DNA from: a virus
DNA: 64,000 nt
Direction: 5' to 3' (one strand)
Virus record (IMG/VR): IMGVR_UViG_3300025437_000011
Location: 32,001 to 96,000 of that record
In this document: piece after piece, positions 1 to 61,650 of the stretch
How the letters are laid out: every line of letters starts with the position of its first letter
Numbering within the stretch: the first letter of the stretch is position 1
Program-made: the position numbers and the translations under genes
Notes under the pieces: generated by a model
Databases searched by the model: none
What the model saw: the letters and a program-made list of their open reading frames with translations, nothing else
Told to the model about the DNA's origin: nothing

Positions 1-1674
1 CCTGCACCCGCATCATTTTGGCAGAGTTCTGGTAGTGGCTACTATGGCCCATGTTATTCATATACTCAAACAAGTGGTTCTTTGAATTTAACTACTGGAA
101 CTTATGCGATGGTTTATAATAAAACTGTTCCTAATAGTGCAACTTTACTTTCAACAATATACACAGGACAAGATCAGTCAAATAATATATATTATGGTGG
201 GTATGAGTTTGGAGTTACAGCAAATAATTATTTGTATTTTGAATATTATTCAATAAATGGCCCACAGGTTTTTAGTTCCAACATTCCACTTTCGGATAAG
301 GCGGCGGTTTTTTTAACATTAGATACGGATAAGGTTTCTTTTGGTAACTATGATTATTTTACATCGCAATTAAATAGTCAAAACATTCCAATTAGTACTT
401 CTTATTTATTTGCTCCAACTGGGGTTTATGTGGGATATAATCCGAATGCTACGGGTATTTATTGTCATAATAAACCTTTTACTGGATACATAGATGAAGT
501 GCTATTTTCCACACAACCACTTCAAAGCAGTTCCCTGTCCACGTTATTTAGTGGCTTTGTTAATAATTACGTACCGTCTACTTCTACAAATTTATCTGGA
601 ATGGTAACTGGGATAACAGGTAGTGGAACTTATTATTCTGGATACTATACTGCAATAACTGGCTATAGTTCAAATCCAACTGGGCTTGTGTATGATTGGT
701 TTGGAAATACTTATACTGGATATCAGGTAACACCATTGACTGGAACTGTTTCTGGTAGCGGCACTGTTCTTTTAACTGGTTCTTTTTATGTAACTACTGG
801 GCAAAATAGCACACCAGACATTATAACATTAAATACTGGTTTTAGGGCAACTTTTGGTAAGACCTCAATTAATTTAATTTATCCAATTATTAGTGGTGAT
901 ATGATTGATGTTAATTTGCCCTCTTTTAATTACCCTGCTGTTTACGAAAATAATTTATCGTTAAGTTATAACAAAATAAACCAGTCTTTTTATAATTCAT
1001 ATTTGCAAAATAATAATTTTAATAATTACGTTGTATTTCATGACGGACTAGCTTTGAATTCTGGTTTATATAATAATTTTGGCGGCGTGTATAATCCTCA
1101 GACTCAAATTTTAAATGATTATTTTGTAGATACTAATAATGAGATTATTTTAGGTACTGGTTTTAATGTAGATATTAATACATTAGATGTTATCATGGCC
1201 GATACTTTTACTGGAATTTATAATTCTGGAATGTATATTTCGAATTTTAACTTAACAGCTTTGGCGGCATCTTCTGGTGTTTATGTTTTACCTTGGAATG
1301 CTTATTTATATAATATATATTATAATGGACAAAAGTTATTAAGTGGAAATAATTCTAATATTAATATATTAACACACTATGGCATTACAGGAAATGGGTC
1401 TTCTATTTATTTTCAAACTGGATCTATTTTTGATAATAATCAAGGCCAGCTATTTGCGCTCCCCCGAAATTTCCAAATTGAAATAACTGGAAATGCACAA
1501 ACATTCTATAATTTGCCACAATTTTATAATGGTTATTCTGAAGTATATCGGAATGGTGAGCGCCTATTTGTAGAAGAAGACTATTTAGAATTAGCAACTT
1601 ATGATATAAATTCTGGGCAGGGTATTTTTGATACTCACCCGTATTTATTATATAATAATAACGATTTGTTTTAA
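1..1674 (+). CDS. Virion structural protein with LamG/concanavalin-like N-terminal region (5'-partial)
   Basis: Frame is open from base 1 (PAPASFWQSSGSGYY...), so the gene starts upstream of the window. FTGYIDEVLFS resembles the LamG C-terminal strand. Rich in S/T/G/Y/N. Confidence 0.6.
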   Translation, partial: PAPASFWQSSGSGYYGPCYSYTQTSGSLNLTTGTYAMVYNKTVPNSATLLSTIYTGQDQSNNIYYGGYEFGVTANNYLYFEYYSINGPQVFSSNIPLSDKAAVFLTLDTDKVSFGNYDYFTSQLNSQNIPISTSYLFAPTGVYVGYNPNATGIYCHNKPFTGYIDEVLFSTQPLQSSSLSTLFSGFVNNYVPSTSTNLSGMVTGITGSGTYYSGYYTAITGYSSNPTGLVYDWFGNTYTGYQVTPLTGTVSGSGTVLLTGSFYVTTGQNSTPDIITLNTGFRATFGKTSINLIYPIISGDMIDVNLPSFNYPAVYENNLSLSYNKINQSFYNSYLQNNNFNNYVVFHDGLALNSGLYNNFGGVYNPQTQILNDYFVDTNNEIILGTGFNVDINTLDVIMADTFTGIYNSGMYISNFNLTALAASSGVYVLPWNAYLYNIYYNGQKLLSGNNSNINILTHYGITGNGSSIYFQTGSIFDNNQGQLFALPRNFQIEITGNAQTFYNLPQFYNGYSEVYRNGERLFVEEDYLELATYDINSGQGIFDTHPYLLYNNNDLF

Positions 1675-1677
1675 AAA

Positions 1678-4371
1678 ATGACCACAAGGAATTTAATAAC
1701 TGCGCCACAAATTAGAGGAGATAATTTCTTTGGAGGTTTGCCATATGGAGTCAGTTGGGATTTTAAAGATGGGTCTACTCCATCAACATTAAAGGTTCAA
1801 TTGGTGAATGAGTTGGGGCAGTATACCGTTACCTCGAATGATTTGTCTTATTTAAAGTCTTCTACTGTAACTATTGGAAACTTGGTTTTTAGGGGTTATT
1901 TGACTGATTTTTCTATAGAAAAAACTCCAGAACAAAAAATTTTAACCCTAGAATACACTGATCTTAGTGCGGACTTGGAGCGTTGGTATGTTGGTTTGTA
2001 TAATAGATATGGATACGCCACAAATAAAGACGCAAGATTAATTATCGTTGGAAAGATCTACCATCCTTGCGATCAAGCTTTAAGCTCTACCGCTGGTGCA
2101 AATAATCATTCATCTTTGGATGTTTGTGACCCCTGCCCATTTATGCCTTATGATAAGTATGCAAATTCTTGTGGTGGAACAGCTACTTCTCCGGCCGCTT
2201 TAATAGATTTTCAAATCTTTGAAGTATGGTATACTTTTGATGATTTATATAATGAGATATCAAAATATTTTTCGGTTAGTGGTGGGGATAAAATTACTAA
2301 AAATAGCAACAATTATCCGTTCAGGGCTCAACATACGGGTAGCTTAAAAAGGGTTCTAGATGCTTGGTGTGCAGACTTGGGTTTAGTATATTATTGGGAT
2401 CCATTTGTTAATAAATTATTTTTCATAGATCGGTCAAAACCTATTAATATACCACCTGCTAATATTGTCGGGGCCGACCCTTTAATTGTTGACTTTACAT
2501 ATGGGGCAAGTAAAAAAAATACCTTCTCTAGGGGATTTCTTGGATATTTTTCAAAAGATGGGTCTATACATGATTATAATTGCACTATTGATCCTACACA
2601 GAGTTTTATTGATACTGCGCCCGTAACTTTTGAGGATTTAATTGGTGTAGATGATGATGGGGATTATAGTGTGGGAACTTATTCTTATTTACAAAAATTA
2701 CAAATACAAACTGCTTTGGCCTATTACAGTAGGGCATTAAGAGATTCATTTTTATGGTTCGGATATTATGAAATTATTACTAAGGATGGGGCGAAATCAG
2801 CTATAGGTCAGTCATTAATTGAGTTTGGTAATATGGAAATATTAGATGTATATTCTCAAGATGACTCTTCTCCTGAAAAGTTTAAAAATATAAACGAGAA
2901 TTTGCCATCACAAAAAAAACAAGATCTAGCGGGATTTAGCTATTATTATATAGTTGCATCTTATGATGATGATCTTGCTAGTAGTCAGTTTACAAATGTA
3001 GAGGATAGAGCAAATAATTTATTAGGTAAATATTGGTACTCTAGGTTTAATACTCCTATACCAGGTGGAACAAATGCGAATACAAATGTAAATGTAAATA
3101 CTGCAGATGGGGGAAGTGGAAATTGGTATATAAGTGGTACTGATTTATCTACATTACCTATTTTTAAATTTGGATTTGCTGCTGATTCAAATATTGGTAA
3201 CTTGGTAACTGCTTCTAATACAGATGATGAAAATAATAGTACTTTAATAGATTCTGGAGTTTCCGGTGGTGGAAATTATGTTACTGGAGAGCAAGATAAA
3301 GTTGTGACTTCTTTTGTTCTTGCAACAAGGGAGCCGCAATGGTGGCCTAGTAAAGACAAGATACAAGATTATAATTCTCTATTTAAATGGTACGATGACT
3401 TATTGCCAGAGCTTTTTGATGATGGTCGTCCAGAGGTTTTATTTAATATTTACCCTGAAGCGTTAAAAGATCCAACTATAAAGTTATTTATTGCCAAGGA
3501 ATATCCTGCATTAAGATCTTCTGATAAATATCAGATTATAATACAACAGGGGTCTAACGATAATGAACCTACATCTCAATCTCCCAAAAATAAAATTGAA
3601 CAAGATGTTTTAGGTAATCCTGTTAAATTATTTGAGGGTATGTGGGGTTTAAGATCTAATAAAACGTGGATATTAAGTCTACCCGGTATGTCTATAACTC
3701 TTCCCGTTGGGGCGTGGAAGTCAAATGGCGCAAGTCAAAATTCTAGTTCAGATTTTGTTAGCGGACAAACATCTAGTTTGGGAAAAACTTCGATTATTGA
3801 TCCAGCTGCTCCAGCTTATACCATTGCACTAAATGTTTCAGAAAGTTTTAAAAAAGTATTACCAAAAGTGGAACATGTTTATCAGCAGTTAGTATCAAGT
3901 ATAGATGTAGCTAAAATTGATTATCACTTTAAGGATATTAGAGAAAATAATTTAAGTTTAGTGCAGGGGATTAATAGGTCTTGTATTCCTACTGGAGGTG
4001 ATATTGATAATTATCTAAAGCAAATATCTCAGAATTCTTTTTATTCTATGCCAACGGCACAGCAGAGAATTTCTTATAAAATAGCTGGAGTGAATCCCAC
4101 TACTAGCTATTCAATTAGTCAGGGACTATCTTCTATTCAGATATCTTTAACAAATAATGGATTCTATACTTCATATACATTAGAAGATAAGATCATTCGT
4201 GCGCCAAGTGATGATTATGTTTTGCAGTCATTAATCGCAAGAACCATAGATCGTGGCACCCTGTCTTCCAGTCAGCAAAATGGCCCAACAGCAAAGATGA
4301 TAGGAAACTCATACAATAATAGTCAGGGTAGTTTTAATAACACTCCAAATCCGGGACAAATTAAGCAATAA
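1678..4371 (+). CDS. Large virion structural protein (tail/baseplate hub-like)
   Basis: 897 aa within a tightly coupled structural operon. N-terminal beta-rich region and DLGLVYYWD motif are reminiscent of tail hub proteins. Confidence 0.45.
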   Translation: MTTRNLITAPQIRGDNFFGGLPYGVSWDFKDGSTPSTLKVQLVNELGQYTVTSNDLSYLKSSTVTIGNLVFRGYLTDFSIEKTPEQKILTLEYTDLSADLERWYVGLYNRYGYATNKDARLIIVGKIYHPCDQALSSTAGANNHSSLDVCDPCPFMPYDKYANSCGGTATSPAALIDFQIFEVWYTFDDLYNEISKYFSVSGGDKITKNSNNYPFRAQHTGSLKRVLDAWCADLGLVYYWDPFVNKLFFIDRSKPINIPPANIVGADPLIVDFTYGASKKNTFSRGFLGYFSKDGSIHDYNCTIDPTQSFIDTAPVTFEDLIGVDDDGDYSVGTYSYLQKLQIQTALAYYSRALRDSFLWFGYYEIITKDGAKSAIGQSLIEFGNMEILDVYSQDDSSPEKFKNINENLPSQKKQDLAGFSYYYIVASYDDDLASSQFTNVEDRANNLLGKYWYSRFNTPIPGGTNANTNVNVNTADGGSGNWYISGTDLSTLPIFKFGFAADSNIGNLVTASNTDDENNSTLIDSGVSGGGNYVTGEQDKVVTSFVLATREPQWWPSKDKIQDYNSLFKWYDDLLPELFDDGRPEVLFNIYPEALKDPTIKLFIAKEYPALRSSDKYQIIIQQGSNDNEPTSQSPKNKIEQDVLGNPVKLFEGMWGLRSNKTWILSLPGMSITLPVGAWKSNGASQNSSSDFVSGQTSSLGKTSIIDPAAPAYTIALNVSESFKKVLPKVEHVYQQLVSSIDVAKIDYHFKDIRENNLSLVQGINRSCIPTGGDIDNYLKQISQNSFYSMPTAQQRISYKIAGVNPTTSYSISQGLSSIQISLTNNGFYTSYTLEDKIIRAPSDDYVLQSLIARTIDRGTLSSSQQNGPTAKMIGNSYNNSQGSFNNTPNPGQIKQ

Positions 4372-6710
4372 TGATTAATATAACTGGCATAAGATATCGC
4401 AATATTTACCCCCAATCGGGAGTAAGTTGGTCTACTTATGTTCGCCCAAATCAAACATCCGGACACTGTCAGTTTTTATTTTCGGGAAGTAGTGGTAATT
4501 GTGTTGTATTTGATTTATACAATGGAAAAATATTATCTTCAGATAAAAGATTGCTGGGCTCGTATAAGAGTGGGGATAATTTGTTTTTTTCGGGAAATTT
4601 ATCTCCTAGCGGCGCTGATTTATATTTAAATTCTATTCCTTTGTATTTGGGGTTAAATATTGCTAATGTAAACCAATTATTTTCTGGAGTGTATTTTAAA
4701 AATTTAGGGCAAAGTTCTATAGGTTTTAATAACCTTACAATTTATGGCGACAATATACCTCCATATTTTTATCAGCCTTTTTATACTTTTTATAAAGGTC
4801 AGGCCACAATTCCAATTCAGCTTGTTAATAGTGGTAATTATCCTATTACTGTCTATTCTGGATATTCTTCTTACAGCGCATTTCCTATAACTGGTACTAA
4901 TCCATTGGTTAATATTCCTAGTGGCGGAACTGGTTATATTTACGCATCAAATACTAATTCAATAGATCTTTCCTCTAAAACAAAATCTATTTCAATATCC
5001 TTATATACAAATATAGGTGTTATTCCTATGTCTGTAAATATTTCCGGATTGTTTACTAATACATTATCTCTGATTAACTTGGGGCCAACTAGTAATATTA
5101 TAAAAAATAATGTGCCAAATGTTTATAGCTTGACATATAGAAATACAGCGCAAACCCCCGTTAGTGTTTCTTTGGCATATGTCAGTGGATATACTGGAAA
5201 TGTATATAGTCCAATTCAAGTTGTTCAAAAATATTCGCAAATAGTAACTGGTTTAATTTCTGGCAGTGGAATTTTTTCTAAATTTTTACAGAATCCATCT
5301 ACTGGAACTGGAACTCCTACTTATTATGTACAGCAGTACAATACAGTTTTAGGCAGGAATGAAACTACTACCGCATCTGGGATTTTATCTACTGCTTCTT
5401 TGTATGCGCCAGATAGTTCAGTTAGTCAAAATATATCTTATACTGCAAGTGGATTGGGAAGTATTTGGTCTGGAAAGAGTTGTATTATTAACGGATCTGG
5501 AATTGCTTATGGTATAATGTGTTCTGGATATGTTGATTATATAACTGGCGGAATATTAACGGGAAATGTACCACTGGGAACACCAATGTCCCAAGTTTAT
5601 TTTAATAATTTATTTACTGGCTATTTAACGGGAGCGGGAGCAAGTTCTTCTTTTGTTTATACTCCTAATAATTCTTTAGTTTTAAATTCTGCATTATTAC
5701 CATCACAATATTCAATCAATTATTTGAGTGCTATTGGTTCGGGGTATGTAACTGGAACTCCAACTGGTAGTGCGTTAGTACAATCAAATGTAACTGGTTA
5801 TTTTTATAATCCAGTAACTACTGGGTTATATTTTAATAAAATTTTAAGCGGAATTGCAACTGGAAATAATGGATTTATAACCACGACTGTAACGGGTAGT
5901 GTTTATTTAGTAGATCCTATTGTTGTGTCAAGCTATTCTTCTATTATAGATTATGCAGCTTTAACATATATAAATAGTGATATATTTTTTACTGGAAATA
6001 TGGCATCTATTGCGCCGAGTAATATTTCTAATGTTTTAATTTATAGCAACCCTACTGGATTAATAATTGGGACTTCTTCTTATGGTTATTTTAACGGTGC
6101 GGGAACTTTAATTGGAAGTCAAACGGGAACAATTGTTTATGCTATTAATAATGATGGTAATGTTTATAATTTTACTGGTGCAAATCAGTTTAGTGTGAAT
6201 ACTTTAACTGGTAGCTATAATGTTTCTGTCGCGGCAACTGGAACTGGATCATGGTTGGCAACGGGAAATTTAACTGGACAACTTTACGCATATCAGGGTA
6301 AAAGGTCTTTTACTGGGGTTTGGACGTTTGCTACTGGTAAAAATATATCTAAATTGAATAACGTTCCGACTTCTGGCACAAGCGGTAATTTGTATGCTCA
6401 ATATTTATCAAGTAGTATAGGTATAAATTCAAATTATGTTTCGCAATTAAGTATTGGTTATAATGATTTATTCTCAATTACCAATAACTCTCCATATATA
6501 GACTCTGCTATTCTTAATGTATCTGGAAAAAACTTTATAGCTCAAGGATATGACAGTGGCGTGTCTTTATATATACAAAATAATACAGGCATATCAAGTT
6601 CTATTAATCCTGCTTTAAATTGTCCACCTGGTTATTATTGGAATAATTGTTGGAATTACTGTATACAATGCACGGGGGCTTGGGATATGTCTGCATGTAA
6701 TTGTTTCTAA
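4371..6710 (+). CDS. Ser/Thr/Gly-rich virion structural protein with Cys-rich C-terminus
   Basis: 779 aa; TAATG stop/start overlap; about 56 [ST]G dipeptides; ends CPPGYYWNNCWNYCIQCTGAWDMSACNCF. Confidence 0.55.
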   Translation: MINITGIRYRNIYPQSGVSWSTYVRPNQTSGHCQFLFSGSSGNCVVFDLYNGKILSSDKRLLGSYKSGDNLFFSGNLSPSGADLYLNSIPLYLGLNIANVNQLFSGVYFKNLGQSSIGFNNLTIYGDNIPPYFYQPFYTFYKGQATIPIQLVNSGNYPITVYSGYSSYSAFPITGTNPLVNIPSGGTGYIYASNTNSIDLSSKTKSISISLYTNIGVIPMSVNISGLFTNTLSLINLGPTSNIIKNNVPNVYSLTYRNTAQTPVSVSLAYVSGYTGNVYSPIQVVQKYSQIVTGLISGSGIFSKFLQNPSTGTGTPTYYVQQYNTVLGRNETTTASGILSTASLYAPDSSVSQNISYTASGLGSIWSGKSCIINGSGIAYGIMCSGYVDYITGGILTGNVPLGTPMSQVYFNNLFTGYLTGAGASSSFVYTPNNSLVLNSALLPSQYSINYLSAIGSGYVTGTPTGSALVQSNVTGYFYNPVTTGLYFNKILSGIATGNNGFITTTVTGSVYLVDPIVVSSYSSIIDYAALTYINSDIFFTGNMASIAPSNISNVLIYSNPTGLIIGTSSYGYFNGAGTLIGSQTGTIVYAINNDGNVYNFTGANQFSVNTLTGSYNVSVAATGTGSWLATGNLTGQLYAYQGKRSFTGVWTFATGKNISKLNNVPTSGTSGNLYAQYLSSSIGINSNYVSQLSIGYNDLFSITNNSPYIDSAILNVSGKNFIAQGYDSGVSLYIQNNTGISSSINPALNCPPGYYWNNCWNYCIQCTGAWDMSACNCF

Positions 6711-7381: not shown

Positions 7382-8167
7382 TTATTTAATTTTTGAATTT
7401 TTATTCTTAATCCCACTTACAATAGTAAAGATTGATAAAGGAGGGATATCATCACATGATTGCCATGTTTCAGCTCCTTCAATTTTCTTTTTAATTGCAC
7501 CCTCTTTAATTTGCTCAAAAGAAATATTATAATCATTCATTGTTTTTTGCAATAGAGACGCTGGCTGGGAAGATGTTCCCTCTGATTCTTGAGTGATGGG
7601 TGATGAGTTTTTTCCGCCCATTTCATCACTACCAACAATATGAATCTTTAAAAAACTACGCACACAACGAACAAAAGCGCGATTTTCAGCAATCGCCATT
7701 AAAAAGTTTTTAGCAAAATTATGTGTATTATCCCAATGGGCATCGGCAAGGGATGAAAAGCTAACTGCTTTACTGCCTGTCTCATAATTTGGCGTAAATT
7801 CAATAGTACATTTAACTGCAACATAATCCGGTCTAGATTCTATAACCTGATATGAAACATCTTTAAAGCCCCTAATTTGAGCTAGTTCCTTAATACCAGC
7901 TAGTAGGATTAATAATTTATTATCTGGAAGTGTTGTGACATCTAAAGACTTTAGGTCAAGATTTTGATCATTTTTAAAGGCATCCTTATTTGGAACAAGA
8001 TACTCTGGGCGGATCATTGCGCGCCAGTTAATCGTATTGTCATCATTAAAGACATAATCAACCCCATTTAAAAAACCATATTCATCTCTAGAATAGCCAA
8101 TTACTTTATCTAAATATCGAGTCACGCCAAGCTCACTCGGAACTTCAGTATTTTTATCTTTTGCCAT
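7382..8167 (-). CDS. Putative Rad52/Sak-like single-strand annealing protein
   Basis: AVKCTIEF...ADA...MAIAENRAFVRCVRSFLKI resembles the Rad52-family core helix. ATG at 8167 is preferred because it lies just after a promoter. Confidence 0.5.
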   Translation of the reverse strand: MAKDKNTEVPSELGVTRYLDKVIGYSRDEYGFLNGVDYVFNDDNTINWRAMIRPEYLVPNKDAFKNDQNLDLKSLDVTTLPDNKLLILLAGIKELAQIRGFKDVSYQVIESRPDYVAVKCTIEFTPNYETGSKAVSFSSLADAHWDNTHNFAKNFLMAIAENRAFVRCVRSFLKIHIVGSDEMGGKNSSPITQESEGTSSQPASLLQKTMNDYNISFEQIKEGAIKKKIEGAETWQSCDDIPPLSIFTIVSGIKNKNSKIK

Positions 8168-8172
8168 ACCCA

Positions 8173-8201
8173 ATCGTATAACAATTTTTTGAGACTGTCA
8201 A
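8173..8201 (-). promoter_or_regulatory. sigma70-like promoter
   Basis: TTGACA-17-TACGAT on the minus strand, 5 nt before ATG 8167. Confidence 0.65.
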
Positions 8202-8205
8202 TAGT

Positions 8206-9384
8206 TTATTCTATAAGCCAACAGAATTCTAAATCTTGCAAAAGAGTTTCTTTATTTTTTATTTTACTTAGTGGGATAAAATCATTACTTGATTCAATTG
8301 AAATATCTTCTAGTTGACAGGCCCTGCTATTATAGACTTTTTGATTCGATAATAAGATTCTATTGGTTTTAAATTTAAAATTATCTGATAGCTCTGGAGC
8401 GTTCTCTACATTTTTCTTGAATTCTTGTATGCCACAAAATTCCATTAGTTGAAATTTTCTATGCTCAAGCTCATCTTTTGTAGAACAACAGGTATCGAAT
8501 ACACAGACATATGGTATTCCTAATTTTTCCATTTGTTCTATAAAGGGTAATTCTACTTCTTTGGTTACTTCATAAATAACCATTGTTAAATTTTGTTTAA
8601 ATTGTAAGAAAGGCGTACAATTAAATCCTTTATCGGTTACTATGGCGCATCTTCTAGTGGCAACGTTTTGTAACATTGACCTAAATATTAATTCGTTTAA
8701 TGAATCTGAATAATCTAAACGTATATTTAATACATCTTCTTTAAAGAAGTTTGGATCTATTACTTGATCTGCTGTTGTTTCAATTAATCTATCCTTATAT
8801 CTATTTCCAGTATAGATTGTTTTGATTTTTATATCGTCAGATTCAAATAGTAATTTATTTACCGATGAGATGATATCTTCTATTTTAATTAGATTAATTG
8901 TTTTTGGTGACTCATTAGGATTAAAGCTAGGCTTATGATTGTCGCTTGGCTTTAAATTGATCTGTTTATTATTCCAATACGGCCCGGCGATTTCTGGCAG
9001 AGTTACGCTATATAATGCAACCGTCGGGATGTCAAATGCACTACACATGTGTACCGCAAAACTATCATTACCAAGATGTAAGCTCGAATTGGATAGGATA
9101 TATGCAGTTTGATTTATAGTTGTTTTGCCTTGTAGATTAATGCATGCATTTAAAACTTTATCTTCTGGGCCTCCAATTTGAATTATTTTATAACCATTGG
9201 CTTCTAGTTTGGGTAATAGTAAATTAATAACTTCTTGAAAATAATCATAGCACTTGCCGGGCATGCCACTACTATTTTGTACAGTAATATACTTTTCTGC
9301 ATCTATTGGGAAAAATTTCTTTACAATTGTAGGCTTCCCAATTTTGCTTCCCGTTGATAGTGCGTATCTGTCTAGTAAGTGCAT
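8206..9384 (-). CDS. GT9 (heptosyltransferase-like) C-terminal domain plus unknown C-terminal domain
   Basis: IIQIGG, NLQGKTTINQTAYIL and HLGNDSFAVHMCSAFDIPTVALY match the GT9 C-terminal Rossmann signature. Confidence 0.75.
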   Translation of the reverse strand: MHLLDRYALSTGSKIGKPTIVKKFFPIDAEKYITVQNSSGMPGKCYDYFQEVINLLLPKLEANGYKIIQIGGPEDKVLNACINLQGKTTINQTAYILSNSSLHLGNDSFAVHMCSAFDIPTVALYSVTLPEIAGPYWNNKQINLKPSDNHKPSFNPNESPKTINLIKIEDIISSVNKLLFESDDIKIKTIYTGNRYKDRLIETTADQVIDPNFFKEDVLNIRLDYSDSLNELIFRSMLQNVATRRCAIVTDKGFNCTPFLQFKQNLTMVIYEVTKEVELPFIEQMEKLGIPYVCVFDTCCSTKDELEHRKFQLMEFCGIQEFKKNVENAPELSDNFKFKTNRILLSNQKVYNSRACQLEDISIESSNDFIPLSKIKNKETLLQDLEFCWLIE

Positions 9385-9385
9385 A

Positions 9386-23068: not shown

Positions 23069-23110
23069 TTTGATTTAGTTATTAAACATATATATTATAT
23101 ATTACACAAT

Positions 23111-23473: not shown

Positions 23474-23474
23474 A

Positions 23475-24146: not shown

Positions 24147-24191
24147 ACTTTAGACAAATATCCCTGAACAGATTATAATTCATATTAATTT

Positions 24192-25471: not shown

Positions 25472-25488
25472 TAATATAAATATATAAT

Positions 25489-26265: not shown

Positions 26266-26370
26266 TATGAAGACAGTTTTTATTACTACATATTCTTCCA
26301 GAAGAAATTTTAAAGAAAAAAGTTTATTTTAGATTTAAATTATTGTATACTGTAGTATATAAACACGCTT

Positions 26371-27971: not shown

Positions 27972-27973
27972 AA

Positions 27974-28387: not shown

Positions 28388-28411
28388 ATCAAACCGTGGT
28401 ATCATTGTAGA

Positions 28412-46364: not shown

Positions 46365-46384
46365 AATTAAAATTACACCTAAAT

Positions 46385-46413
46385 TTGACAAAAAACCCAA
46401 AAACAGCTAGAAT
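46385..46413 (+). promoter_or_regulatory. sigma70-like promoter back-to-back with a minus-strand GTGTAA motif (46373-46378)
   Basis: TTGACA-17-TAGAAT, 8 nt before ATG 46422. Confidence 0.8.
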
Positions 46414-50461: not shown

Positions 50462-51049
50462 ATGGATCATCTAAAGAACGAAACGGTTCTAGTTTTAAAC
50501 CGTAACTGGCAAGCAATTCATGTGAAGAACCCGGCCGAAGCAATAACAATGATGTATTCAGATAATGCCACAGCACTAGATATTCGTGGCGAGGATCATA
50601 TGGTTCCGCTTCGTTGGAATGACTGGATTAAACTCCCAATTGATGAAGAGAGGGAAGATTTTATTCAAACTGTAAACGGTAAGATTAAAATTCCAAAAGT
50701 TTTAGTTCTTTGCCGCTACGATAAAGTTCCAAGAAAGCGTCCGAAGTTTTCTCTTAAAGGCGTATGGGAGCGGGATAATGGTACTTGCCAATATACCGGA
50801 AAAAAATTACACCCACATGACGCAAATATTGACCATGTAATTCCACGCTCTCGTGGTGGAAAAACCGATTGGAGTAATTGCGTCCTATCGCATAAAGAAA
50901 TTAATTCAAAAAAAGCAGACAGAACTCCAGAAGAGGCCGGGCTCAAACTGTTGAGAAAACCTGCTGATCCCAAAGAGCTTCCAGCTACATTCTATATTAG
51001 AAACAAACATAATGTTCGGGAGTGGGATTTATTTTTAAATTTTAATTGA
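50462..51049 (+). CDS. HNH endonuclease
   Basis: VLVLNRNW, RDNGTCQYTG, IDHVIPRSRGG..W.N......NSKKADRTP. Confidence 0.9.
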   Translation: MDHLKNETVLVLNRNWQAIHVKNPAEAITMMYSDNATALDIRGEDHMVPLRWNDWIKLPIDEEREDFIQTVNGKIKIPKVLVLCRYDKVPRKRPKFSLKGVWERDNGTCQYTGKKLHPHDANIDHVIPRSRGGKTDWSNCVLSHKEINSKKADRTPEEAGLKLLRKPADPKELPATFYIRNKHNVREWDLFLNFN

Positions 51050-51080: not shown

Positions 51081-51818
51081 ATGGACACAAAAACTGTTAG
51101 GCTTTTAAATAAACGTTTGGCTGGGCCACGTTTTCTAAAATACGTTGATGTAAGAGATGTTGATGATTATTTTAATTTGCCCCTAGATCAGCGCGAACGT
51201 TGGGGTTTTTATCGTAAACCGTTTGCTCTTCCAATGGACGGCTCTATTTTGGAACGCGATAAGCCACTAACAATTACCAAAGGTTGGACAGCTTGGGAAA
51301 ATGAAATTAAAAAGCAATACCCCGTTCAGTGGTTCTTTCGTGAGTGGTTCTTAAGTTGGGACAATCCAGCCTATGCCTTCCTTAAAGGATTATATTTTGA
51401 TTATAATAATTTGAAGGGTACAGTAAAACGTTTTATTAAACCTTTTTACCCACGTTTTCGCAAGGCATGTCCTCGTCATAAATATTCTGACATTTCAGAA
51501 CTTACACGGGAAATTAACTTCGCATTAATTCTAGATTTCTGGTATGAAGAAATGGTAGATGGAGTTGTTGATTGGCAGGATAACAATGCACATAAACAAT
51601 TCTTTAAGCAGATCAAGGCCGCAGTTAAATATATTGAAGTTGACCGTCCAAAGCTAGAAGCACAATCGGATTCAGCACTAACTATTGCAACAAATAAAAA
51701 GAAGGGAACTTTTGAACAGCGTTATGGGAAACATCAGGCCCTTGAAAACAAGACGCGCGAGAAAGACACTGAACTTCTCGTTTGGATGATGCAACAAAGA
51801 GAAATGTTTTGGACATGA
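51081..51818 (+). CDS. Hypothetical Trp-rich protein
   Basis: 245 aa; TTGATT-17-TAAGAT 6 nt before ATG; ATGA-coupled to the next gene. Confidence 0.6.
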   Translation: MDTKTVRLLNKRLAGPRFLKYVDVRDVDDYFNLPLDQRERWGFYRKPFALPMDGSILERDKPLTITKGWTAWENEIKKQYPVQWFFREWFLSWDNPAYAFLKGLYFDYNNLKGTVKRFIKPFYPRFRKACPRHKYSDISELTREINFALILDFWYEEMVDGVVDWQDNNAHKQFFKQIKAAVKYIEVDRPKLEAQSDSALTIATNKKKGTFEQRYGKHQALENKTREKDTELLVWMMQQREMFWT

Positions 51819-52819
51819 GTAAAATTTTAATTATCGAATCTACTAGCAAGACCAAGCCGCTTGCAGAAGACTTTAGCGATACTAGTATCGTTCATTGTAG
51901 AAACTCTATTATCCTAAAGAATTATCTAGGGGCCGACCTACTGGATGGTGAATATAAATTACCACAAATCGTTAATAATAAGTATGATGTGATTATTTGT
52001 TGCTATGCTTCGCCCTATATGCCGCATATTCCATATCGGCAAATTATAGATAATAACCCCGGCGCTAGACTTGTTTGGCTAGTAAACGATCATGACCTAG
52101 AGGATAATCAGCTTCTTCGTTACGCTATTTTACAGGGTAGAACTTACGACATGATTTGCAACAATCCGAGAGGTGGTTATCGTCATTGGATTCTAGGAAA
52201 GAATATTGAAGGAAAGAAGTTAAATGACTTTATTATTAACTGGCACACAACTAATTTAAACTCTCTTATCTTTAGGGACACTAGACATCTTCCCGTTCGT
52301 GAGAATAAAAATGGTTTTATTTACTATGGAACCTACAGGAAACACCGAGCAGATGATTTTAAAGCCTTTTTACGAAAGGGCATGACAGTCTCTAGTAGCA
52401 TTAAGCATTGGAAGAAGTACGAGGCAATTGGTTGCGATTCCGAATTTATTCGCCCCCTAACTTGGCAAAAAGATAACGAAGACTTGAGAAACTATCAATA
52501 CAGTCTTTATTTGGAAGATAAACACACGCATGATAATTATGCGTTCCTAGCTAATCGTTTTTATGAGGCGCTAATGTGCGATGTTGTTACTCTATTTGCG
52601 CCCAATACAATTAATACTGTTGATCGTGCAGTAAATAGTGGACTAGAAATTCCCGCTTCAGTTATCCTACCAGATAACTCTTACAATGGAAAAGTTCAGA
52701 AGTTCATTGAATCTCTAGATTTTAATTCGTTTATTAAATACCAAAGAGACAATTACTTTGACCAAATTTTGGCGGAGCGTGAAATGGTACTTTATGGAAT
52801 TAAAGATTTTTTAAGTTAA
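51815..52819 (+). CDS. T4 beta-glucosyltransferase-like GT-B enzyme (candidate DNA glycosyltransferase)
   Basis: KILII, YDVIIC, WLVNDHDL, IYYGTYRKHR and LEDKHTHDN..LANRFYEAL are collinear with recalled T4 BGT motifs. Confidence 0.6.
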   Translation: MSKILIIESTSKTKPLAEDFSDTSIVHCRNSIILKNYLGADLLDGEYKLPQIVNNKYDVIICCYASPYMPHIPYRQIIDNNPGARLVWLVNDHDLEDNQLLRYAILQGRTYDMICNNPRGGYRHWILGKNIEGKKLNDFIINWHTTNLNSLIFRDTRHLPVRENKNGFIYYGTYRKHRADDFKAFLRKGMTVSSSIKHWKKYEAIGCDSEFIRPLTWQKDNEDLRNYQYSLYLEDKHTHDNYAFLANRFYEALMCDVVTLFAPNTINTVDRAVNSGLEIPASVILPDNSYNGKVQKFIESLDFNSFIKYQRDNYFDQILAEREMVLYGIKDFLS

Positions 52820-54303
52820 CCGATATAAGCAACAGTCCAGTTATCGTTACCATCAAAAATAATCGTTCCGGCTAATACAGATAGTTTCAGGGTATCTCCT
52901 ACACCCAATCTTGAAATAGTACTTACACCAGCATGATTCATAGATGTATTATTACCAAACTCTAACATGGCTTGAACTGTAGTTGAGCTAGCACCGAGAC
53001 CACTTTTTATAACAACTGCCTGACTTATAGCATTAAGACTATTACTGTTTGTTCTTGCAACCAAATGAACAGAATAAAGTCCAGATATTGGTGCAGTAAA
53101 AATACCATTTGATTGGTTTAAAGAGTTTCCCTGCTGATAGTCTAAAGTCCAATTACCACTAGTTAATGTAGTGGTTGCGGAAACTGCGCCACCGTTACCT
53201 ACAACACGAAATGCCGGACGCATGGGCATAGTCACAACCCCAAGTGGCAGATTTAAATTGCCACTTAAGTCAACTTGCATTAATTCTGTACCGCCAGATT
53301 CGTTTAGGTTTTTAGTAATGCGCCAATACTGTTTATTTGACGAACTATTATAATAAGAATCAATACCAAAATTTTTATTTCCAGAATAATAAAATAGCGT
53401 GCCCGGCGTGTCGGTCGTACCATTATCAAACATCAAGTCTCCAACATTATAACCAGCTTTTGCAAAAGTATTTTTCCCCAAAGTTGTTCCACCAGTTATA
53501 GGTAAATAACCAGTAAGAGAATTTTGAAGAGCAAAACCACTTGGATTTGACGCAGGATAAAATTGTCCAGTTTGTGAAGTTGTTACATAACTAGGAAGCG
53601 TATATGAAAAACTATTTCCAGTAGCAGAATAGCCCGGCACAAAACTCGTAACATCCCAAGTATTACTTCCACTATTATATATAGCCCCAAAAACATCCGT
53701 AGACCCAACACCCGTACTTGCAACTAAACTTGTTGAGGCAGGAATACGGAAACCCGTTCCTAAAGATATAGGATTATTACCCGACCCACCCTGAGTTATT
53801 CTCCAAATTTTCTTTTGACCATCAAAAAATGACCCACTGGGACTCTGTATTGTATACGAACCAGTAATTGTAGTATTGGTTGTTACAGATATTTGATTAG
53901 CAAAAGCTAACCCACTACCATTAATATAAACTCCATTAGAAAAATTTCCACTTCCAATTACATCTAAATCATAAACTGGAGAATTATTCTGAATACCAAC
54001 CTTCCATCCTGCGGCTGGATTTAATAATAAATTATTATTTGGATAAATTGTAACATTTCCCGCCGCTCCGATTCCAAATCCGCCATACGAATTACCAATG
54101 TTAGTAGAATCTATATTAAAATATAAAGGCGTTTGGTTAATACCTATCGAACCGTTTGCCAATTGTTTTCCAGTAATAAATCCAGAGGGATTAGAAAGTG
54201 CATAATAAAGTGATGCGGCGGTGCCAGTAGTTAAAAAAGATCCCGTATTGATCGACTGTGATGATGCAGTTGATGGATTATTTAATGTATTAAAAAATGG
54301 CAT
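52816..54303 (-). CDS. Tail fibre/receptor-binding protein with C-terminal C1q-like domain
   Basis: VGIQNNSPVYDLDVIG repeat; PAFRV..NGIFTAPISGLY...LGVGDTL (C1q-like). Confidence 0.75.
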   Translation of the reverse strand: MPFFNTLNNPSTASSQSINTGSFLTTGTAASLYYALSNPSGFITGKQLANGSIGINQTPLYFNIDSTNIGNSYGGFGIGAAGNVTIYPNNNLLLNPAAGWKVGIQNNSPVYDLDVIGSGNFSNGVYINGSGLAFANQISVTTNTTITGSYTIQSPSGSFFDGQKKIWRITQGGSGNNPISLGTGFRIPASTSLVASTGVGSTDVFGAIYNSGSNTWDVTSFVPGYSATGNSFSYTLPSYVTTSQTGQFYPASNPSGFALQNSLTGYLPITGGTTLGKNTFAKAGYNVGDLMFDNGTTDTPGTLFYYSGNKNFGIDSYYNSSSNKQYWRITKNLNESGGTELMQVDLSGNLNLPLGVVTMPMRPAFRVVGNGGAVSATTTLTSGNWTLDYQQGNSLNQSNGIFTAPISGLYSVHLVARTNSNSLNAISQAVVIKSGLGASSTTVQAMLEFGNNTSMNHAGVSTISRLGVGDTLKLSVLAGTIIFDGNDNWTVAYIG

Positions 54304-54307
54304 AATT

Positions 54308-55432
54308 TTAAGCGTACCATATTACGCCAGCCGCACTATTTATTGTCGCACTGGCATAGAGTGCATTTTGTGGAACTACTGGAAATTCATATCCTTGGCC
54401 CGGCGCATAGTTCATAGAGTTTCCAGAAAGTGCTGGGTTTTGATTTGAAATATAAACCGTTCCAGTTGAAAGATTTTGAAATGCAAACATTTTAATTGCA
54501 GTACCTACAGGGAATACTATTGCTGTTCCAGTATTAATTGTCACCCCACTAAAAGATATATTTCCAGTAGGATAATTTGTAATACCTATATTATTATTGC
54601 CAGGCGGTAATGGTGAATTTGGAGACAAGGCAACAACCTCGGCAGTATCCCCGGTCCCGGCTGCTGTTAGGGCTGGTTTAATAGTAATTAAATTTCCAGA
54701 AGGATCAGTCGGCTGTATTTTACCGATTAAATTGTATCCTACTGGAAGAGAATTATCCAACATTACATTACTGGTAGATGAAGACTGATTAACAACAAAA
54801 GCAACCTGAAATGGGGCAGTTCCCGTTAATCCATTTGCACGAAATCTAATAGCTTTAATAGCACTTGTATTGATTTGGCCTATTGTCGGATTAGATGTCG
54901 CGGCATATGATGTGACAGAAGCACCATTTGTTAAAGAAACATAACTTGTTGCAAGCCATGTCGAACCGTCAATTGATCCTTCAATATTTATAGTCCCAGC
55001 ACTAACATTTGTAGACACAGATTGAAATGCAAGTGTTGAATAATTTGTAGTATTAACAACGTAACTACCAGTGTTAACATTAATTATTACTCCAGTGCCT
55101 CCAGATAAGTCTGGATTAGTATACCCAATATAATTAGATCCAGATGGTAAAACTCCGCTCAATCCAACCACTGTTGGCGGATTATATGGATTAATTCCAT
55201 TATCATAATAAATAGCCAAAAGATCTGAATTTGTAATTGTTGGCGATCCAGCCAAAGTGAGGATACTGTTCGTGCCTTGAGTATATAAGGAAGGTGGTAT
55301 TCCTCCAATCTGATAAAGTATCGACCCCTGAGTCGCATCGGCAATTAGGAGAATTTGCGATGTCGGAACATTAACGCCAGACATAGTAATGGCATTTCCA
55401 TTAATTGAGTATGTATTACAGAGTGTTTTCAT
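54308..55432 (-). CDS. Virion structural/fibre-associated protein
   Basis: LPSGSNYIG / LPVGYNLIG / LPPGNNNIG repeats; IEGSIDGSTW. Confidence 0.6.
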   Translation of the reverse strand: MKTLCNTYSINGNAITMSGVNVPTSQILLIADATQGSILYQIGGIPPSLYTQGTNSILTLAGSPTITNSDLLAIYYDNGINPYNPPTVVGLSGVLPSGSNYIGYTNPDLSGGTGVIINVNTGSYVVNTTNYSTLAFQSVSTNVSAGTINIEGSIDGSTWLATSYVSLTNGASVTSYAATSNPTIGQINTSAIKAIRFRANGLTGTAPFQVAFVVNQSSSTSNVMLDNSLPVGYNLIGKIQPTDPSGNLITIKPALTAAGTGDTAEVVALSPNSPLPPGNNNIGITNYPTGNISFSGVTINTGTAIVFPVGTAIKMFAFQNLSTGTVYISNQNPALSGNSMNYAPGQGYEFPVVPQNALYASATINSAAGVIWYA

Positions 55433-55436
55433 TATA

Positions 55437-56924
55437 TTATCCTAGCGCTATTGCGTATGCGATGGCATTTAAGTTAGCTTTATTTACACTTATAAAACCG
55501 GATGGGTTAGAATTTGGATAAAATGATCCAGTTTGGGAATTAGGCAAATAGGTTGAGGCATCATAACCACTCAGGCCAGTTAGTTGCGCATAAGTGGCAT
55601 ATGAAGAAAGATTAACGCCCGTTATAAACCCGCTCGGATTGGAGGCGGGATAAAACGCACCCGTTTGGCCCGTTGTAATATATCCACTTGGGTTGGAATT
55701 TAATGGATAATAATTTCCAGTTGAGGCCGCTCCAGTTGAAACTGTAACACCATTATATTGAAGCGTTCCAGTAAAGTTATAAGAACCACCCAAAACTTGT
55801 GTTCCAGTTGTATATACTATTCCACTTGGAAGAGTAACTGCCGATGCCTCTCCGCTCAATAGGACTCCAGTTCCATTTACGGTTGGGCGAACAGTAAATG
55901 CGGCACTAGAAGTTGTTACAAAATTGCCAGTATTAATTCCTGTAATAAAACCACTAGGATTATTCCTTGGATAATAAGCCGAAAGGTCAACCCCAGTAAT
56001 AAAAGCCGAAGGATTACTTGCCGGATAAAATAGTCCAGTTTGAGAAGTGCTTATGAAGGAACCAGTTTGTGATTTTGGTACATAAGTTAGAGCATCATAT
56101 CCACTAACTCCAGTTAACTGTGCATAAGTAGCATAATTATTGGTTAGGGTTCCACTTAATGAATTTATTGATGAGGCAAGCGTAGATCCAGTAGTAGAAA
56201 GATTTGACGTTAATGTGGAAATTGAAGATGAAAGTGTTGACCCTGTTGTTGCCAAATTAGTCGCAACTGTCGCAATGTTAGTACTTAATGTTTGTCCAGT
56301 TGTATAAACATTTGTAATTGTGGCAAAAGTATTATTTGAATAACCGCTTAAAGAATTAATTGAACTATATAAGTTTGAACCAGAAGTAACTAAATTTCCA
56401 CTCAAAGAATTAATTTGACCTTGAAGATTAGATCCAGTTGTAGCTAAATTTGTACTGATTGTACTCTCATTTGTAGTAAGCGTCCCACTTAGAGAAAAAA
56501 TTCTAGAAGACAATACTGATCCTGTTGTGGCTAAATTAGTTGCAAGCGTAGAACCAGTAGTAGCTAAATTTGTAGTAAGTCCAGAAATTTGTAGCTGAAT
56601 TCCCGAACCGCTAGCGACAAAAGCCGCTACGGTTTCATAGTAACCTGTTAAAGTTCCGCTTAGAGATGAAATGGAAATATTTGCAGAATTAATTCCAGAT
56701 TGAAGAACTCCACTTATACCAATTTGACTAACATTGTCTACATTTCCCAGTCCAACATCTGATGAATTTAATGAAACGTATCCTTGTTTACCATTAACAG
56801 CAAAAACCCCCGCCCCTTGCGACGAAACAACATTAACAACAGGTTGCGTCGGTGGTTGAACGGTTACATTTGTTTGTATAACCGCTGGTGGCGTTGTGGT
56901 TACATTGACATTAATTTCGGCCAT
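55437..56924 (-). CDS. Fibre protein with LATTGS and YPxxNPSGF repeats
   Basis: VNGKQGYVSL...VGLGNVDN, repeated LATTGS, five NPS[GA][FY]I units. Confidence 0.7.
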   Translation of the reverse strand: MAEINVNVTTTPPAVIQTNVTVQPPTQPVVNVVSSQGAGVFAVNGKQGYVSLNSSDVGLGNVDNVSQIGISGVLQSGINSANISISSLSGTLTGYYETVAAFVASGSGIQLQISGLTTNLATTGSTLATNLATTGSVLSSRIFSLSGTLTTNESTISTNLATTGSNLQGQINSLSGNLVTSGSNLYSSINSLSGYSNNTFATITNVYTTGQTLSTNIATVATNLATTGSTLSSSISTLTSNLSTTGSTLASSINSLSGTLTNNYATYAQLTGVSGYDALTYVPKSQTGSFISTSQTGLFYPASNPSAFITGVDLSAYYPRNNPSGFITGINTGNFVTTSSAAFTVRPTVNGTGVLLSGEASAVTLPSGIVYTTGTQVLGGSYNFTGTLQYNGVTVSTGAASTGNYYPLNSNPSGYITTGQTGAFYPASNPSGFITGVNLSSYATYAQLTGLSGYDASTYLPNSQTGSFYPNSNPSGFISVNKANLNAIAYAIALG

Positions 56925-56925
56925 A

Positions 56926-57342
56926 TTATAGTGTGTAGCTTCCTACTAAATTAACATTATCGTATACATTTAAATTTCCAGCAATATAAGTATTAGCGAC
57001 AGAACCTGAAACTACCTGAACAGCATAATAATAGGCTCCGGCGCGCATCATCATTTGGGAGCCTGAAAGTTGATTTAAAATTGCATAATTACCACTTGGC
57101 CCAGTAATTGAAATTGTTCCATTTGATGTTGACCATTGGTACGCAACAGTCTGCCATTGACCATTATAATCAATATTATCTTGATATAAATTTGTCTCTG
57201 TATACTGTGTTCCTAAAGTTCCAATAATAGATAATCCACTCAAATTTATAGGATTATTATTTACATCTGTAAAAATAAAGGTGATAGGGCCATAACTATC
57301 GCCCCTATAGGCATCAGGTAAATTATAAAGCGTAGGAATCAT
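56926..57342 (-). CDS. BppU-like/baseplate accessory protein
   Basis: RGDS..ITF.FTD.N..PINLSG, YYYAVQV, YIAGNL.V. Confidence 0.55.
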   Translation of the reverse strand: MIPTLYNLPDAYRGDSYGPITFIFTDVNNNPINLSGLSIIGTLGTQYTETNLYQDNIDYNGQWQTVAYQWSTSNGTISITGPSGNYAILNQLSGSQMMMRAGAYYYAVQVVSGSVANTYIAGNLNVYDNVNLVGSYTL

Positions 57343-60134: not shown

Positions 60135-60995
60135 GTGACCGATAAAACAATATATTTTTATATTGATCCCAAATATGGATCTGCTTACTTAAGGGGCTGG
60201 CAAGTAAGACAAAAGCTTCGCCAGTTGGGGTATAATGCGAGAATCATCACTCGTCCAAACCCAAACATTAGGGACTCCATAATTTTTTGTGTTAAAACTC
60301 GTATATTAAATACTCAAATTTTTGATACCAGCAACTTTATTATTTGGGATTCGGTAGATTTTATTGACAGAGAAAAAAGACTGAGTGATTTTACACGTTT
60401 AGCAGATGTTGCTGATATAGTTGTTTATCATAATACAGTTCTTCCTCATTATTTTAAATCAGAGCATAACATTGAAAAGGAATATAGAATAATTCCGCAC
60501 CATTGGGATGCCAGAATTCAAAATACTAAACCTCACGAAGATAAATTTTCGATTGGATACATAGGAAATGATATATCTAGCATCCATTTGAATTTAATTC
60601 AAAATAAATATTTTATCATTGGTAAAAATTTCCTAGGTAAGCACTTCGTAGATGAACTTAATAAATATAGTTGTCATTTTGATATAAAAGATCCAGATCA
60701 TTTTAAATTTAAAACTTGTTCGGCAATGAAACTCTCAACAGCCGCCGCTGTTAATAAATGCATTATTTTAAATAAAACATGGTCAAATCTAGACCTATTA
60801 CCAGAAAATTCTATACTTTTTACCGAAGACAGTAGCGAAGAGGCGGCTAGAAGTAAAATAGAAGAAATAGCTTCTATTTATCAAACACCTGAATGGGATC
60901 ATATCCTGATCGACTTACAGAAGATTAAAGAAAAAACTTCCTTGGATAATATCATTAAATTATACGAAAATATTATTATTGAAAATGCAAACTAA
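60135..60995 (+). CDS. Glycosyltransferase-like protein (GT-B)
   Basis: GSAYLRG, WDSVD, IPHHWD, IGYIG, MKLSTAAA. Confidence 0.55.
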   Translation: MTDKTIYFYIDPKYGSAYLRGWQVRQKLRQLGYNARIITRPNPNIRDSIIFCVKTRILNTQIFDTSNFIIWDSVDFIDREKRLSDFTRLADVADIVVYHNTVLPHYFKSEHNIEKEYRIIPHHWDARIQNTKPHEDKFSIGYIGNDISSIHLNLIQNKYFIIGKNFLGKHFVDELNKYSCHFDIKDPDHFKFKTCSAMKLSTAAAVNKCIILNKTWSNLDLLPENSILFTEDSSEEAARSKIEEIASIYQTPEWDHILIDLQKIKEKTSLDNIIKLYENIIIENAN

Positions 60996-61650
60996 AGTAA
61001 TCACATCAATAGTCGGAGACGGACGGGACTGGTTACATACCCCAATGCCGGAAGATAATGTAGAGTTTGTAGCATACACAAATCAATTTGCGCCGCATTG
61101 GACAATAAAATCACCTTGCGATATTTTTTCGGAGCCAAAAAAGAATGCTAAAATTCATAAGATTCTTTTACATAAATATGAGGATTGCGATTACTCGATT
61201 TGGATTGATGGAAATGTAAATTTATTGCAACCTGTGAATAAAATTATTGCAGATCTTTTGGGGGATAATGACCTAGCAATTACGCAACATCCCAATAGAA
61301 ATAATTTATTTGAAGAGGCTGAACATATAAAAATAAAAAAAGTAGAATATCCGCATATTGTAGACAGGCAGTTAGAAAGATACAGAAATCAAAAAGAAGA
61401 AATTATACAAGAAAATAAACTTTATTTTGCAACTGTCTTGATAAGAAAACATTCTAAAAAAATTAATCGGTTTAATGATGCTTGGTGGGCGGAAATTTGT
61501 ACAAACTCATTTCGTGACCAAATTTCTCTTCCGTATGTTCTTCGTCAATTTTCTGACCTTAAAATTAATACGTTTAATTTAGAAACAATGAACAGATATT
61601 TTCATAGAAAAGACCATCCAAGAATTACATATGGCAACAATGAAATATAA
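60985..61650 (+). CDS. DUF616-type glycosyltransferase
   Basis: KIHKILLH, SIWIDGN, HPNRN.LFEEA, FRDQISLPYV. Confidence 0.8.
   Translation: MQTKVITSIVGDGRDWLHTPMPEDNVEFVAYTNQFAPHWTIKSPCDIFSEPKKNAKIHKILLHKYEDCDYSIWIDGNVNLLQPVNKIIADLLGDNDLAITQHPNRNNLFEEAEHIKIKKVEYPHIVDRQLERYRNQKEEIIQENKLYFATVLIRKHSKKINRFNDAWWAEICTNSFRDQISLPYVLRQFSDLKINTFNLETMNRYFHRKDHPRITYGNNEI

Follow-up and report, generated by a model that had tools for sequence, protein, structure and literature searches.

A [Ser/Thr]-Gly bias in phage tail and fiber proteins and its possible link to a split GT4/GT9 glycosyltransferase cassette

We analyzed a 64,000-nucleotide stretch of DNA (here referred to as the window) spanning bases 32001 to 96000 of IMG/VR record IMGVR_UViG_3300025437_000011, a 108,475-bp contig from an uncultured lake phage (35% G+C, ca. 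70% complete according to CheckV). Glycine in its outer tail and fiber proteins is preceded by serine or threonine ([ST]G) with a frequency that composition does not explain, and the same phage carries a conserved gene cassette in which a GT9-type glycosyltransferase (GT) fold appears to be divided over two adjacent genes. Our preferred interpretation, to which we give a probability of roughly 0.4, is that the phage O-glycosylates its outer tail and fiber proteins at [ST]G. In its broadest and equally tentative form, a large group of aquatic DnaE-type phages would put strain-specific O-glycans on tail and fiber proteins at [Ser/Thr]-Gly by means of a naturally split GT4-GT9 complex, and this would be the first sequon-defined protein glycosylation in a bacteriophage.

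A directional dipeptide bias in tail and fiber proteins

The proteins of the window that bear on the bias are the following.

1..1674, plus strand: C-terminal 557 amino acids (aa) of an 848-aa tail protein whose gene starts at genome position 31128; strong bias outside a LamG-like insert
1678..4371, plus strand: 897-aa tail-module protein, an unbiased internal negative control
4371..6710, plus strand: 779-aa tail protein, the most biased; N-terminal domain a ConA-like/galectin beta-sandwich
46014..46400, minus strand: 128-aa protein with weak bias
52816..55432, minus strand: two fiber-module proteins of 495 and 374 aa with mild bias (7.3% and 4.8% charged residues)
55437..56924, minus strand: 495-aa fiber protein with strong bias (3% charged residues)
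56926..57342, minus strand: 138-aa product of the first gene of the fiber operon (phrog_1084, E value of 2e-8), preceded by a GTGTAAW motif at 57369

Significance was assessed with within-protein shuffles over the whole 108-kb contig. Ser or Thr precedes 56 of the 86 glycines in 4371..6710 (expected, 19.7; z of ca. 10) and 42 of 55 in 55437..56924 (expected, 16.9; z of ca. 8), reproducing exactly the counts given in a previous sequence-only reading of the window. For 1..1674 the figure is 34/54, and for the whole 848-aa protein it is 38/84 (z of 5.8), with a single case among the 22 glycines of the LamG-like insert (residues 55 to 295). Two more strongly biased proteins are encoded upstream of the window, at genome positions 5193-6608 (38/54) and 15167-16039 (10/20); the former is the product of a paralogous fiber gene located after the portal gene and clusters with the protein at 55437..56924. 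Together these five proteins cover z values from 5.8 to 10. The neighboring 897-aa protein (19% charged) had only 9/66 (z of -0.6), and the enzymes were likewise unbiased, as the sequence-only reading had stated. Among the other regions in which that reading saw the bias, 1..1674 held up as strong, while the signal was weak (z of ca. 2 to 2.5) in 46014..46400 (6/14, z of ca. 2) and in the rest of 52816..57342, where we counted 23/65 in 52816..54303 (z of 2.5), 14/39 in 54308..55432 (z of 2.1, with the reverse dipeptide equal at 14), and 5/14 in 56926..57342.

The bias has a clear direction. When both dipeptides were compared protein by protein across the genome, the five strongly biased proteins were enriched in [ST]G and not in G[ST] (z of -0.3 to 0.8). 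Pooling these five, 184 of 299 glycines (62%) follow Ser or Thr versus 302 of 1,887 (16%) elsewhere (odds ratio, 8.4; P = 5e-58). Glycine is the only residue enriched after Ser/Thr (2.7-fold; alanine, 0.86-fold), and both hydroxyl residues contribute, with 91 S-G and 93 T-G dipeptides. Although the five proteins contain 10% Asn, N-G is depleted to 0.48 times expectation. They are also rich in Ser plus Thr (23 to 31%), with 72% of these residues lacking a following Gly, and extremely poor in charged residues (D+E+K+R), which make up 3 to 8% versus 24% in the rest of the proteome.

Trivial sources of the signal could be discarded. Composition is ruled out by the within-protein shuffles. Several codons encode the Ser/Thr (five different ones are used), and hence there is no nucleotide motif behind the bias; the sole DNA-level effect is an avoidance of NNA codons before GGN. 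Recent tandem duplication is also ruled out, since only one 31-bp array is present. As a separate observation on codon usage in the strongly biased proteins, Ser/Thr codons ending in A (TCA and ACA) are strongly avoided right before Gly codons, and ACT rises there from 42% to 72%.

Spread of the bias and signs of selection

Through the terminase, the contig could be matched to ca. 184 related lake-phage contigs. We used for comparison four complete relatives of 140 to 178 kb (G001, G002, G004, and G005), making five genomes with that of the window (G000). No cultured relatives were recovered by tblastn of both fiber proteins against GenBank phages, and searches for related loci with single fiber proteins gave little or nothing. 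Each of the four complete relatives has 9 or 10 proteins with z values of >3.5 (maximum, 15.6), and these belong to more than eight virion clusters that are unrelated by BLAST. Within the relatives, the bias also extends into a Pfam LamG_3 domain (9/20) and an RCC1-like propeller (17/33), and the homologues of the weakly biased 128-aa protein reach z values of 3 to 3.9.

The family of the 779-aa protein was the most informative. A profile search against 1.8 billion representatives provided 196 members, and 125 of the 126 long enough to test had z values of >3.5 (median of ca. 9.5), at every level of divergence and whatever their C-terminal domains. In the alignment of this family (27 to 30% identity), Ser or Thr precedes the glycine at a frequency of at least 70% in 42 of the 60 conserved-Gly columns. 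The usual turn residues before Gly are Asp and Asn; both are rare in these columns, and Ser and Thr are mixed in 27 of the 42. This retention of Ser/Thr, with S and T interchanging and D/N rare, points to selection on the hydroxyl group.

To put these values into perspective, other phages were analyzed in the same way. The fiber and tail proteins of lambda (J, Stf, H, and V) and T4 (gp34, gp35, gp37, and others) are unbiased, ruling out a general property of fibers. An AT-rich genome or a Bacteroidota host as the cause is ruled out by the complete genome of Chryseobacterium phage MA9V-3 (AT-rich and with a DnaE polymerase), in which no protein exceeds a z value of 3.5, the one reaching it being a highly charged 673-aa protein with 11/46. 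A fold-intrinsic origin is ruled out as well, given that there are biased and unbiased examples of both ConA-like and LamG domains. The possession of GTs is also insufficient, as S-CBS4 and TJE1 have GT clusters and no comparable bias. The covariation of bias and GT content across phages, which the sequence-only reading had proposed to test, was seen for the cassette described below, which is found in the biased relatives and is absent from five unbiased phages. These five cassette-less phages showed no comparable bias, only isolated z values of 3.5 to 4.8 derived from low counts. One small protein of the Tetrasphaera phage TJE1 (orf13, 215 aa, at 8804..9451 of locus L170) has 7/15 (z of 4.8, with small counts) and is encoded directly upstream of its glycosyltransferase. 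All of this supports the view that the bias is specific to outer virion proteins, is under selection, and is not explained by composition or fold.

The spread of the bias is also where a different explanation has to be considered. [ST]G could be a lineage-specific building or assembly motif of nearly charge-free, beta-rich proteins, with the GTs acting elsewhere. It might take the form of a strand-entering turn stabilized by the side-chain hydroxyl or of a tag for a fiber chaperone, and the targets of the GTs could be the host envelope, a lipid-linked glycan, or DNA. Consistent with such a role, the bias follows low charge content: at cassette-bearing loci, the median z is 3.0 in low-charge proteins versus 0.1 in charged ones. 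The location of the cassette among replication genes (see below) fits too, and so does the structural context of the sites. The AlphaFold 2 model of the 779-aa protein, which is confident for residues 1 to 226 only, has an N-terminal domain (residues 1 to 127) matching sialidase carbohydrate-binding modules and galectins (VIA Z of 12 to 16). On this confident part, 10 of the 15 [ST]G sites immediately precede a strand, within a turn or loop, and the other glycines are distributed alike; the site mapping proposed in the sequence-only reading gave the turns but no difference from other glycines. However, ordinary turns favor Asn or Asp before Gly, contrary to the depletion of N-G in these Asn-rich proteins; the same fold classes exist with and without the bias; the fibers of T4, lambda, S-CBS4, and MA9V-3 lack it; and more than eight unrelated families share it solely within cassette-bearing phages. 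We therefore consider an assembly motif a doubtful explanation, although a serious one.

A conserved cassette with a GT9 fold apparently divided over two genes

A core of sugar genes is conserved in all five genomes.

7382..8173, minus strand: 263-aa protein, always encoded by the last cassette gene; orthologues in the same position in all relatives
8206..9384, minus strand: 392-aa protein with a GT9 C-lobe (residues 1 to 182) and an alpha/beta domain (residues 190 to 392); PF01075, 51 bits (cutoff, 22)
9386..11317, minus strand: 643-aa protein with a GT4-like region (ca. residues 1 to 440), a DUF4214-like linker, and the start of a GT9 N-lobe (residues 530 to 643)
11320..11763, minus strand: 147-aa protein, encoded by the first cassette gene; in nearly all cassette loci, the 643-aa gene is immediately preceded by a homologue
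13240..14328, plus strand: GT4-family glycosyltransferase (phrog_2170 glycosyltransferase, E value of 4e-15; atlas neighbors carry Glycos_transf_1), with orthologues in G001, G002, G004, and G005
18559..19614, plus strand: GDP-mannose 4,6-dehydratase (Gmd; PF16363, E value of 1e-109), with orthologues in the four complete genomes

The first half of the 392-aa protein belongs to GT9. Its profile matches WaaF (E value of 9e-6), and its AlphaFold 2 model (pLDDT [predicted local distance difference test] score of 91.8) contains no N-lobe. Residues 1 to 182 gave VIA Z scores of 18.6 with WaaF, 17.1 with WaaC, 16.8 with 3tov, and 15.2 with TibC, the next GT-B structure scoring at most 11.6, and Foldseek retrieved the same set. 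The C-terminal, nucleotide-sugar-binding Rossmann lobe expected of a GT9/PF01075 member is therefore present, while an N-lobe with the S-x-G-D motif is absent from the same chain. The catalytic-base motif S-x-G-D is instead found in 84 of 102 homologues of the adjacent 643-aa protein, which has weak Pfam matches to GT1 and DUF4214 and only distant GT4 matches in the search for cultured-phage relatives. Thus, the GT9 fold appears to be divided over the two adjacent genes at 8206..11317 (minus strand). The split is kept in all 102 homologues (typically ca. 640 aa; range, 353 to 1,126 aa), none of which is a fused single-chain GT9. Residues 190 to 392 of the 392-aa protein (8206..8815) have middling matches to radical-SAM-type partial barrels (SkfB, PqqE, and BlsE; Z of ca. 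9), and the 263-aa protein had no PDB, Pfam, or PHROG match, only faint SSAP-like hints.

The cassette was detected in ca. 40 further phage contigs in the same gene order, down to 30 to 41% identity. It is usually convergent with biased tail-fiber genes (in the window and at loci L145, L146, L149, L155, L166, and L168), and wherever tail genes flank it at further loci, they are biased. A bacterial origin is ruled out, as all 20 matches labeled as metagenome-assembled genomes (MAGs) are phage-like contigs. Contigs L151-L169, binned as Flavobacteriales, Halobacteriovorax, Saccharibacteria, Promethearchaeota, and others, carry the DnaE, ribonucleotide reductase, and GT cassette of the group and are probably phage contigs misbinned into those MAGs.

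In many relatives, the cassette adjoins DnaE and other replication genes, which would be expected if the GT pair and the accompanying sugar genes glycosylated phage DNA, an antirestriction hypermodification of the kind seen in T-even phages and in other viruses whose bases carry glycans. DNA hypermodification, too, typically comes with variable GT sets (PMC13326640). Nevertheless, the ThyA family (PF00303) is absent from G000, G001, G002, G004, and G005, whereas the same search matched 10 of 14 control genomes; these phages thus lack the known routes to glycosylatable bases that depend on ThyA. A search of the five genomes for TET/JBP (PF12851) gave no match, although it was run without a positive control. 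Moreover, an ordinary dTMP supply is indicated by the genes for ThyX, dCMP deaminase, and a MazG-like protein, and DNA as the target would leave the protein bias unexplained. We regard DNA glycosylation as quite improbable.

Comparison with known glycosylation systems

The closest parallel to the proposed modification is found in the bacterial autotransporter heptosyltransferases (BAHTs), protein O-heptosyltransferases represented by TibC and Aah, which act on TibA and AIDA-I. Like the system proposed here, they are cytoplasmic GT9-type enzymes of GT-B fold, encoded beside their substrate, that put many sugars on hydroxyls in turns of a beta-rich surface protein. TibC is one of the four best structural matches of the C-lobe of the 392-aa protein, and the cassette lies beside biased tail genes, which we take as its presumptive substrates. 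TibC modifies Ser313 of TibA, located in an N-S-G-G turn (PMC4358343). There are also clear differences. The phage divides the GT9 fold between two proteins and joins it to a GT4-like enzyme. BAHT acceptors are Ser only, whereas here S-G and T-G are about equally frequent (91 versus 93) and 27 of 42 conserved columns mix both residues. Instead of an autotransporter beta-helix, phage tail proteins with several different folds are the candidate substrates, and WaaF and WaaC, which are lipopolysaccharide heptosyltransferases, match the C-lobe slightly better than TibC.

Two virus-encoded systems and one split enzyme are also relevant. For the strain-specific glycans on their particles, chloroviruses and mimiviruses encode many GTs along with sugar methyltransferases and nucleotide-sugar enzymes of the Gmd type. 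This phage shares the trait of virus-encoded nucleotide-sugar synthesis (Gmd and a nucleotidyltransferase) together with a C-methyltransferase and members of the GT2, GT4, GT9, WavE, and TOD1 families. However, the former are giant viruses of eukaryotes, their glycans are of the N-linked or fibril type, and they use other enzyme families; neither an [ST]G motif nor GT9 is known from them. In the eukaryotic Alg13/Alg14 pair, the two Rossmann-like lobes of one GT-B enzyme are on separate polypeptides, as would be the case here, but it belongs to a GT1/MurG-like family with a membrane-anchored partner and a lipid-linked acceptor, and the complex in the phage is only a proposed one. Finally, capsid proteins are the reported carriers of glycans in mycobacteriophages such as Che8 and its relatives, whose two GTs are encoded close to the end of the genome (Freeman et al. 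2023, cited in PMC11256854). They share with the system proposed here phage-encoded GTs that attach glycans covalently to virion proteins made in the bacterial cytoplasm. In our phage, by contrast, the capsid shows no bias and the candidates belong to the tail and fibers; its set of enzymes is also far larger, and the motif proposed comprises two residues.

Another possibility is that the phage enzymes glycosylate the virion at other Ser/Thr or at other residue types and that the bias has a separate cause. In its favor, 72% of the Ser/Thr lack a following Gly, in proteins where these residues are 23 to 31% of the total, and mycobacteriophage glycosylation is reported for capsid proteins with no two-residue sequon stated (PMC11256854). 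Yet the strongest sequence signal in these proteins would be left unexplained, and the mapped TibC site does include S-G (PMC4358343). We consider glycosylation at other sites unlikely.

A proposed mechanism and its weaknesses

The most economical reading of the bias is a trans-acting factor that recognizes a hydroxyl residue followed by Gly on outer virion proteins, for which the conserved GT pair is the obvious candidate. Since every biased phage also carries the split sugar-transferase pair, sugar attachment at [ST]G is a plausible, chemically unproven hypothesis. From the observed bias, selection, clade-wide spread, enzyme folds, and synteny we infer the following scheme, in which all chemical steps, the acceptor, the sugars donated, and the complex are proposals. 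In the host cytoplasm, the phage would O-glycosylate its outer tail and fiber proteins on Ser/Thr followed by Gly, mostly in a turn leading into a beta-strand. The priming enzyme would be a two-chain complex, to which the 643-aa protein would contribute the GT4-like transferase and the start of the GT9 N-lobe with the catalytic Asp, and the 392-aa protein the GT9 donor-binding C-lobe. The glycine might make the backbone of the acceptor loop flexible enough to reach into the catalytic cleft, an idea put forward for TibC acting on TibA. The second conserved GT4 and Gmd, which would supply a 6-deoxyhexose precursor, could extend the glycan, and a strain-specific island may decorate it in each phage, with a C-methylated sugar here and amino and O-methyl sugars in relatives. 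Such a glycan coat could keep nearly charge-free proteins soluble and shielded.

Several observations weigh against glycosylation at [ST]G. The association between bias and cassette is phylogenetically nonindependent, with one or two origins, and no cassette-less relative that would serve as a natural knockout was found among the relatives. Some low-charge proteins at cassette loci are barely biased (z of 0.3 to 2), and the glycines of the capsid (5/36) and the candidate tail tube (12/43) are not clearly biased, unlike what the glycosylated proteins of mycobacteriophages would suggest. The equal use of S and T departs from the Ser-only BAHTs. On the enzyme side, profile positions 533 to 593 of the 643-aa protein align with residues 8 to 68 of GT9 3tov with an E value of only 0.013, a weak match, and two distant homologues lack the aligned Asp. 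The cassette closes the replication block and lies outside the late structural operon; in several relatives it comes right after DnaE, and it lacks the GTGTAAW motif of the structural genes. Besides, the mapping of sites to turns in the predicted model cannot separate a structural from a modification role. The sequence-only reading had taken [ST]G as the mark of glycan sites on surface-exposed virion proteins; the bias turned out to be real, specific to outer proteins, and selected, while glycan attachment stays an interpretation.

If glycosylation at [ST]G is correct, virion glycosylation would be common among abundant freshwater and marine phages, where it could be read from sequence, and would not be confined to a few mycobacteriophages. 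Consequences would follow for phage stability, host recognition, grazing, and immune recognition, and the engineering of glycoproteins in bacteria would gain an enzyme pair and a compact tag of two residues. Whatever the target, an enzyme architecture in which more than 100 homologues keep a GT9 fold stably split across two genes is unusual.

Accessory sugar genes and a hypervariable island

Outside the conserved core, the window encodes additional known or candidate sugar genes.

21235..22164, plus strand: 309-aa protein at the island edge; no Pfam or PHROG match; present in four of five genomes (homologues in G001, G002, and G005)
22157..27615, plus strand: strain-specific sugar island, with Pfam matches
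47085..47981, minus strand: GT2/GT92-type glycosyltransferase (PF13704, E value of 1e-17; PF01697, E value of 4e-14); no homologue in relatives
60979..61650, plus strand: TOD1/MUCI70-type glycosyltransferase-like protein (PF04765, E value of 1.5e-21); no homologue in relatives

The island contains genes for a 303-aa protein, a HAD phosphatase, a PRK-family kinase, a sugar-phosphate nucleotidyltransferase, a 147-aa protein, a WavE-like protein, and a nucleoside diphosphate (NDP)-sugar C-methyltransferase, and none of the genes at 22157..27615 has a homologue in G001, G002, G004, or G005. The locus, between the UvsX gene and the DnaB block (21235..28400; L093, L103, and L111), holds different sugar genes in each relative, namely, GT2/GT17/FkbM, GT4/DegT, or GT32-like. 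Of the sugar-nucleotide enzymes of the phage, only Gmd is conserved. Surface-glycan loci have the same layout, in which a conserved core is combined with a hypervariable sugar island.

The sequence-only reading had listed nine GT-like genes. Six of them have family support (those at 8206, 9386, 13240, 25489, 47085, and 60979), and the other three (21235, 22157, and 60135) match nothing in Pfam or PHROGs; its Gmd (18559) and sugar C-methyltransferase (26371) were both correct. The multistep glycan that it envisaged, built by about ten GTs, is compatible with the large glycan-building set encoded, although most of this set is a strain-specific accessory island and not a conserved pathway.

Genome context and other features

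Upstream of the window are the genes for the large terminase, the portal, a candidate capsid protein, and a 2,796-aa tape measure protein. The window opens in distal tail genes, followed by the minus-strand enzyme cassette and a long replication and nucleotide block (ribonucleotide reductase, Gmd, UvsX, DnaB, primase, dCMP deaminase, ClpP, PHP, DnaE, and ThyX), with a second fiber operon on the minus strand (52816..57342) toward the window end. A ClpP-family protease gene and a separate PHP-domain gene are found at 33838..35145, just upstream of DnaE, and the replication block includes homing endonuclease genes of the LAGLIDADG (31883..32821) and HNH (50462..51049) types. Neither Pfam nor PHROGs gave a match for the gene at 51782..52819; of the five genomes, G000, G001, and G002 alone contain it, always after the same 245-aa gene. 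The GTGTAAW motif occurs 2 to 32 nucleotides before the starts of the portal, tape measure, and other structural genes and of the fiber operon, and is absent before the GT cassette. Its positions are as follows.

57369, 58482, 18038, 31875, 38337, 59209, and 59562, plus upstream structural genes: GTGTAAW sites

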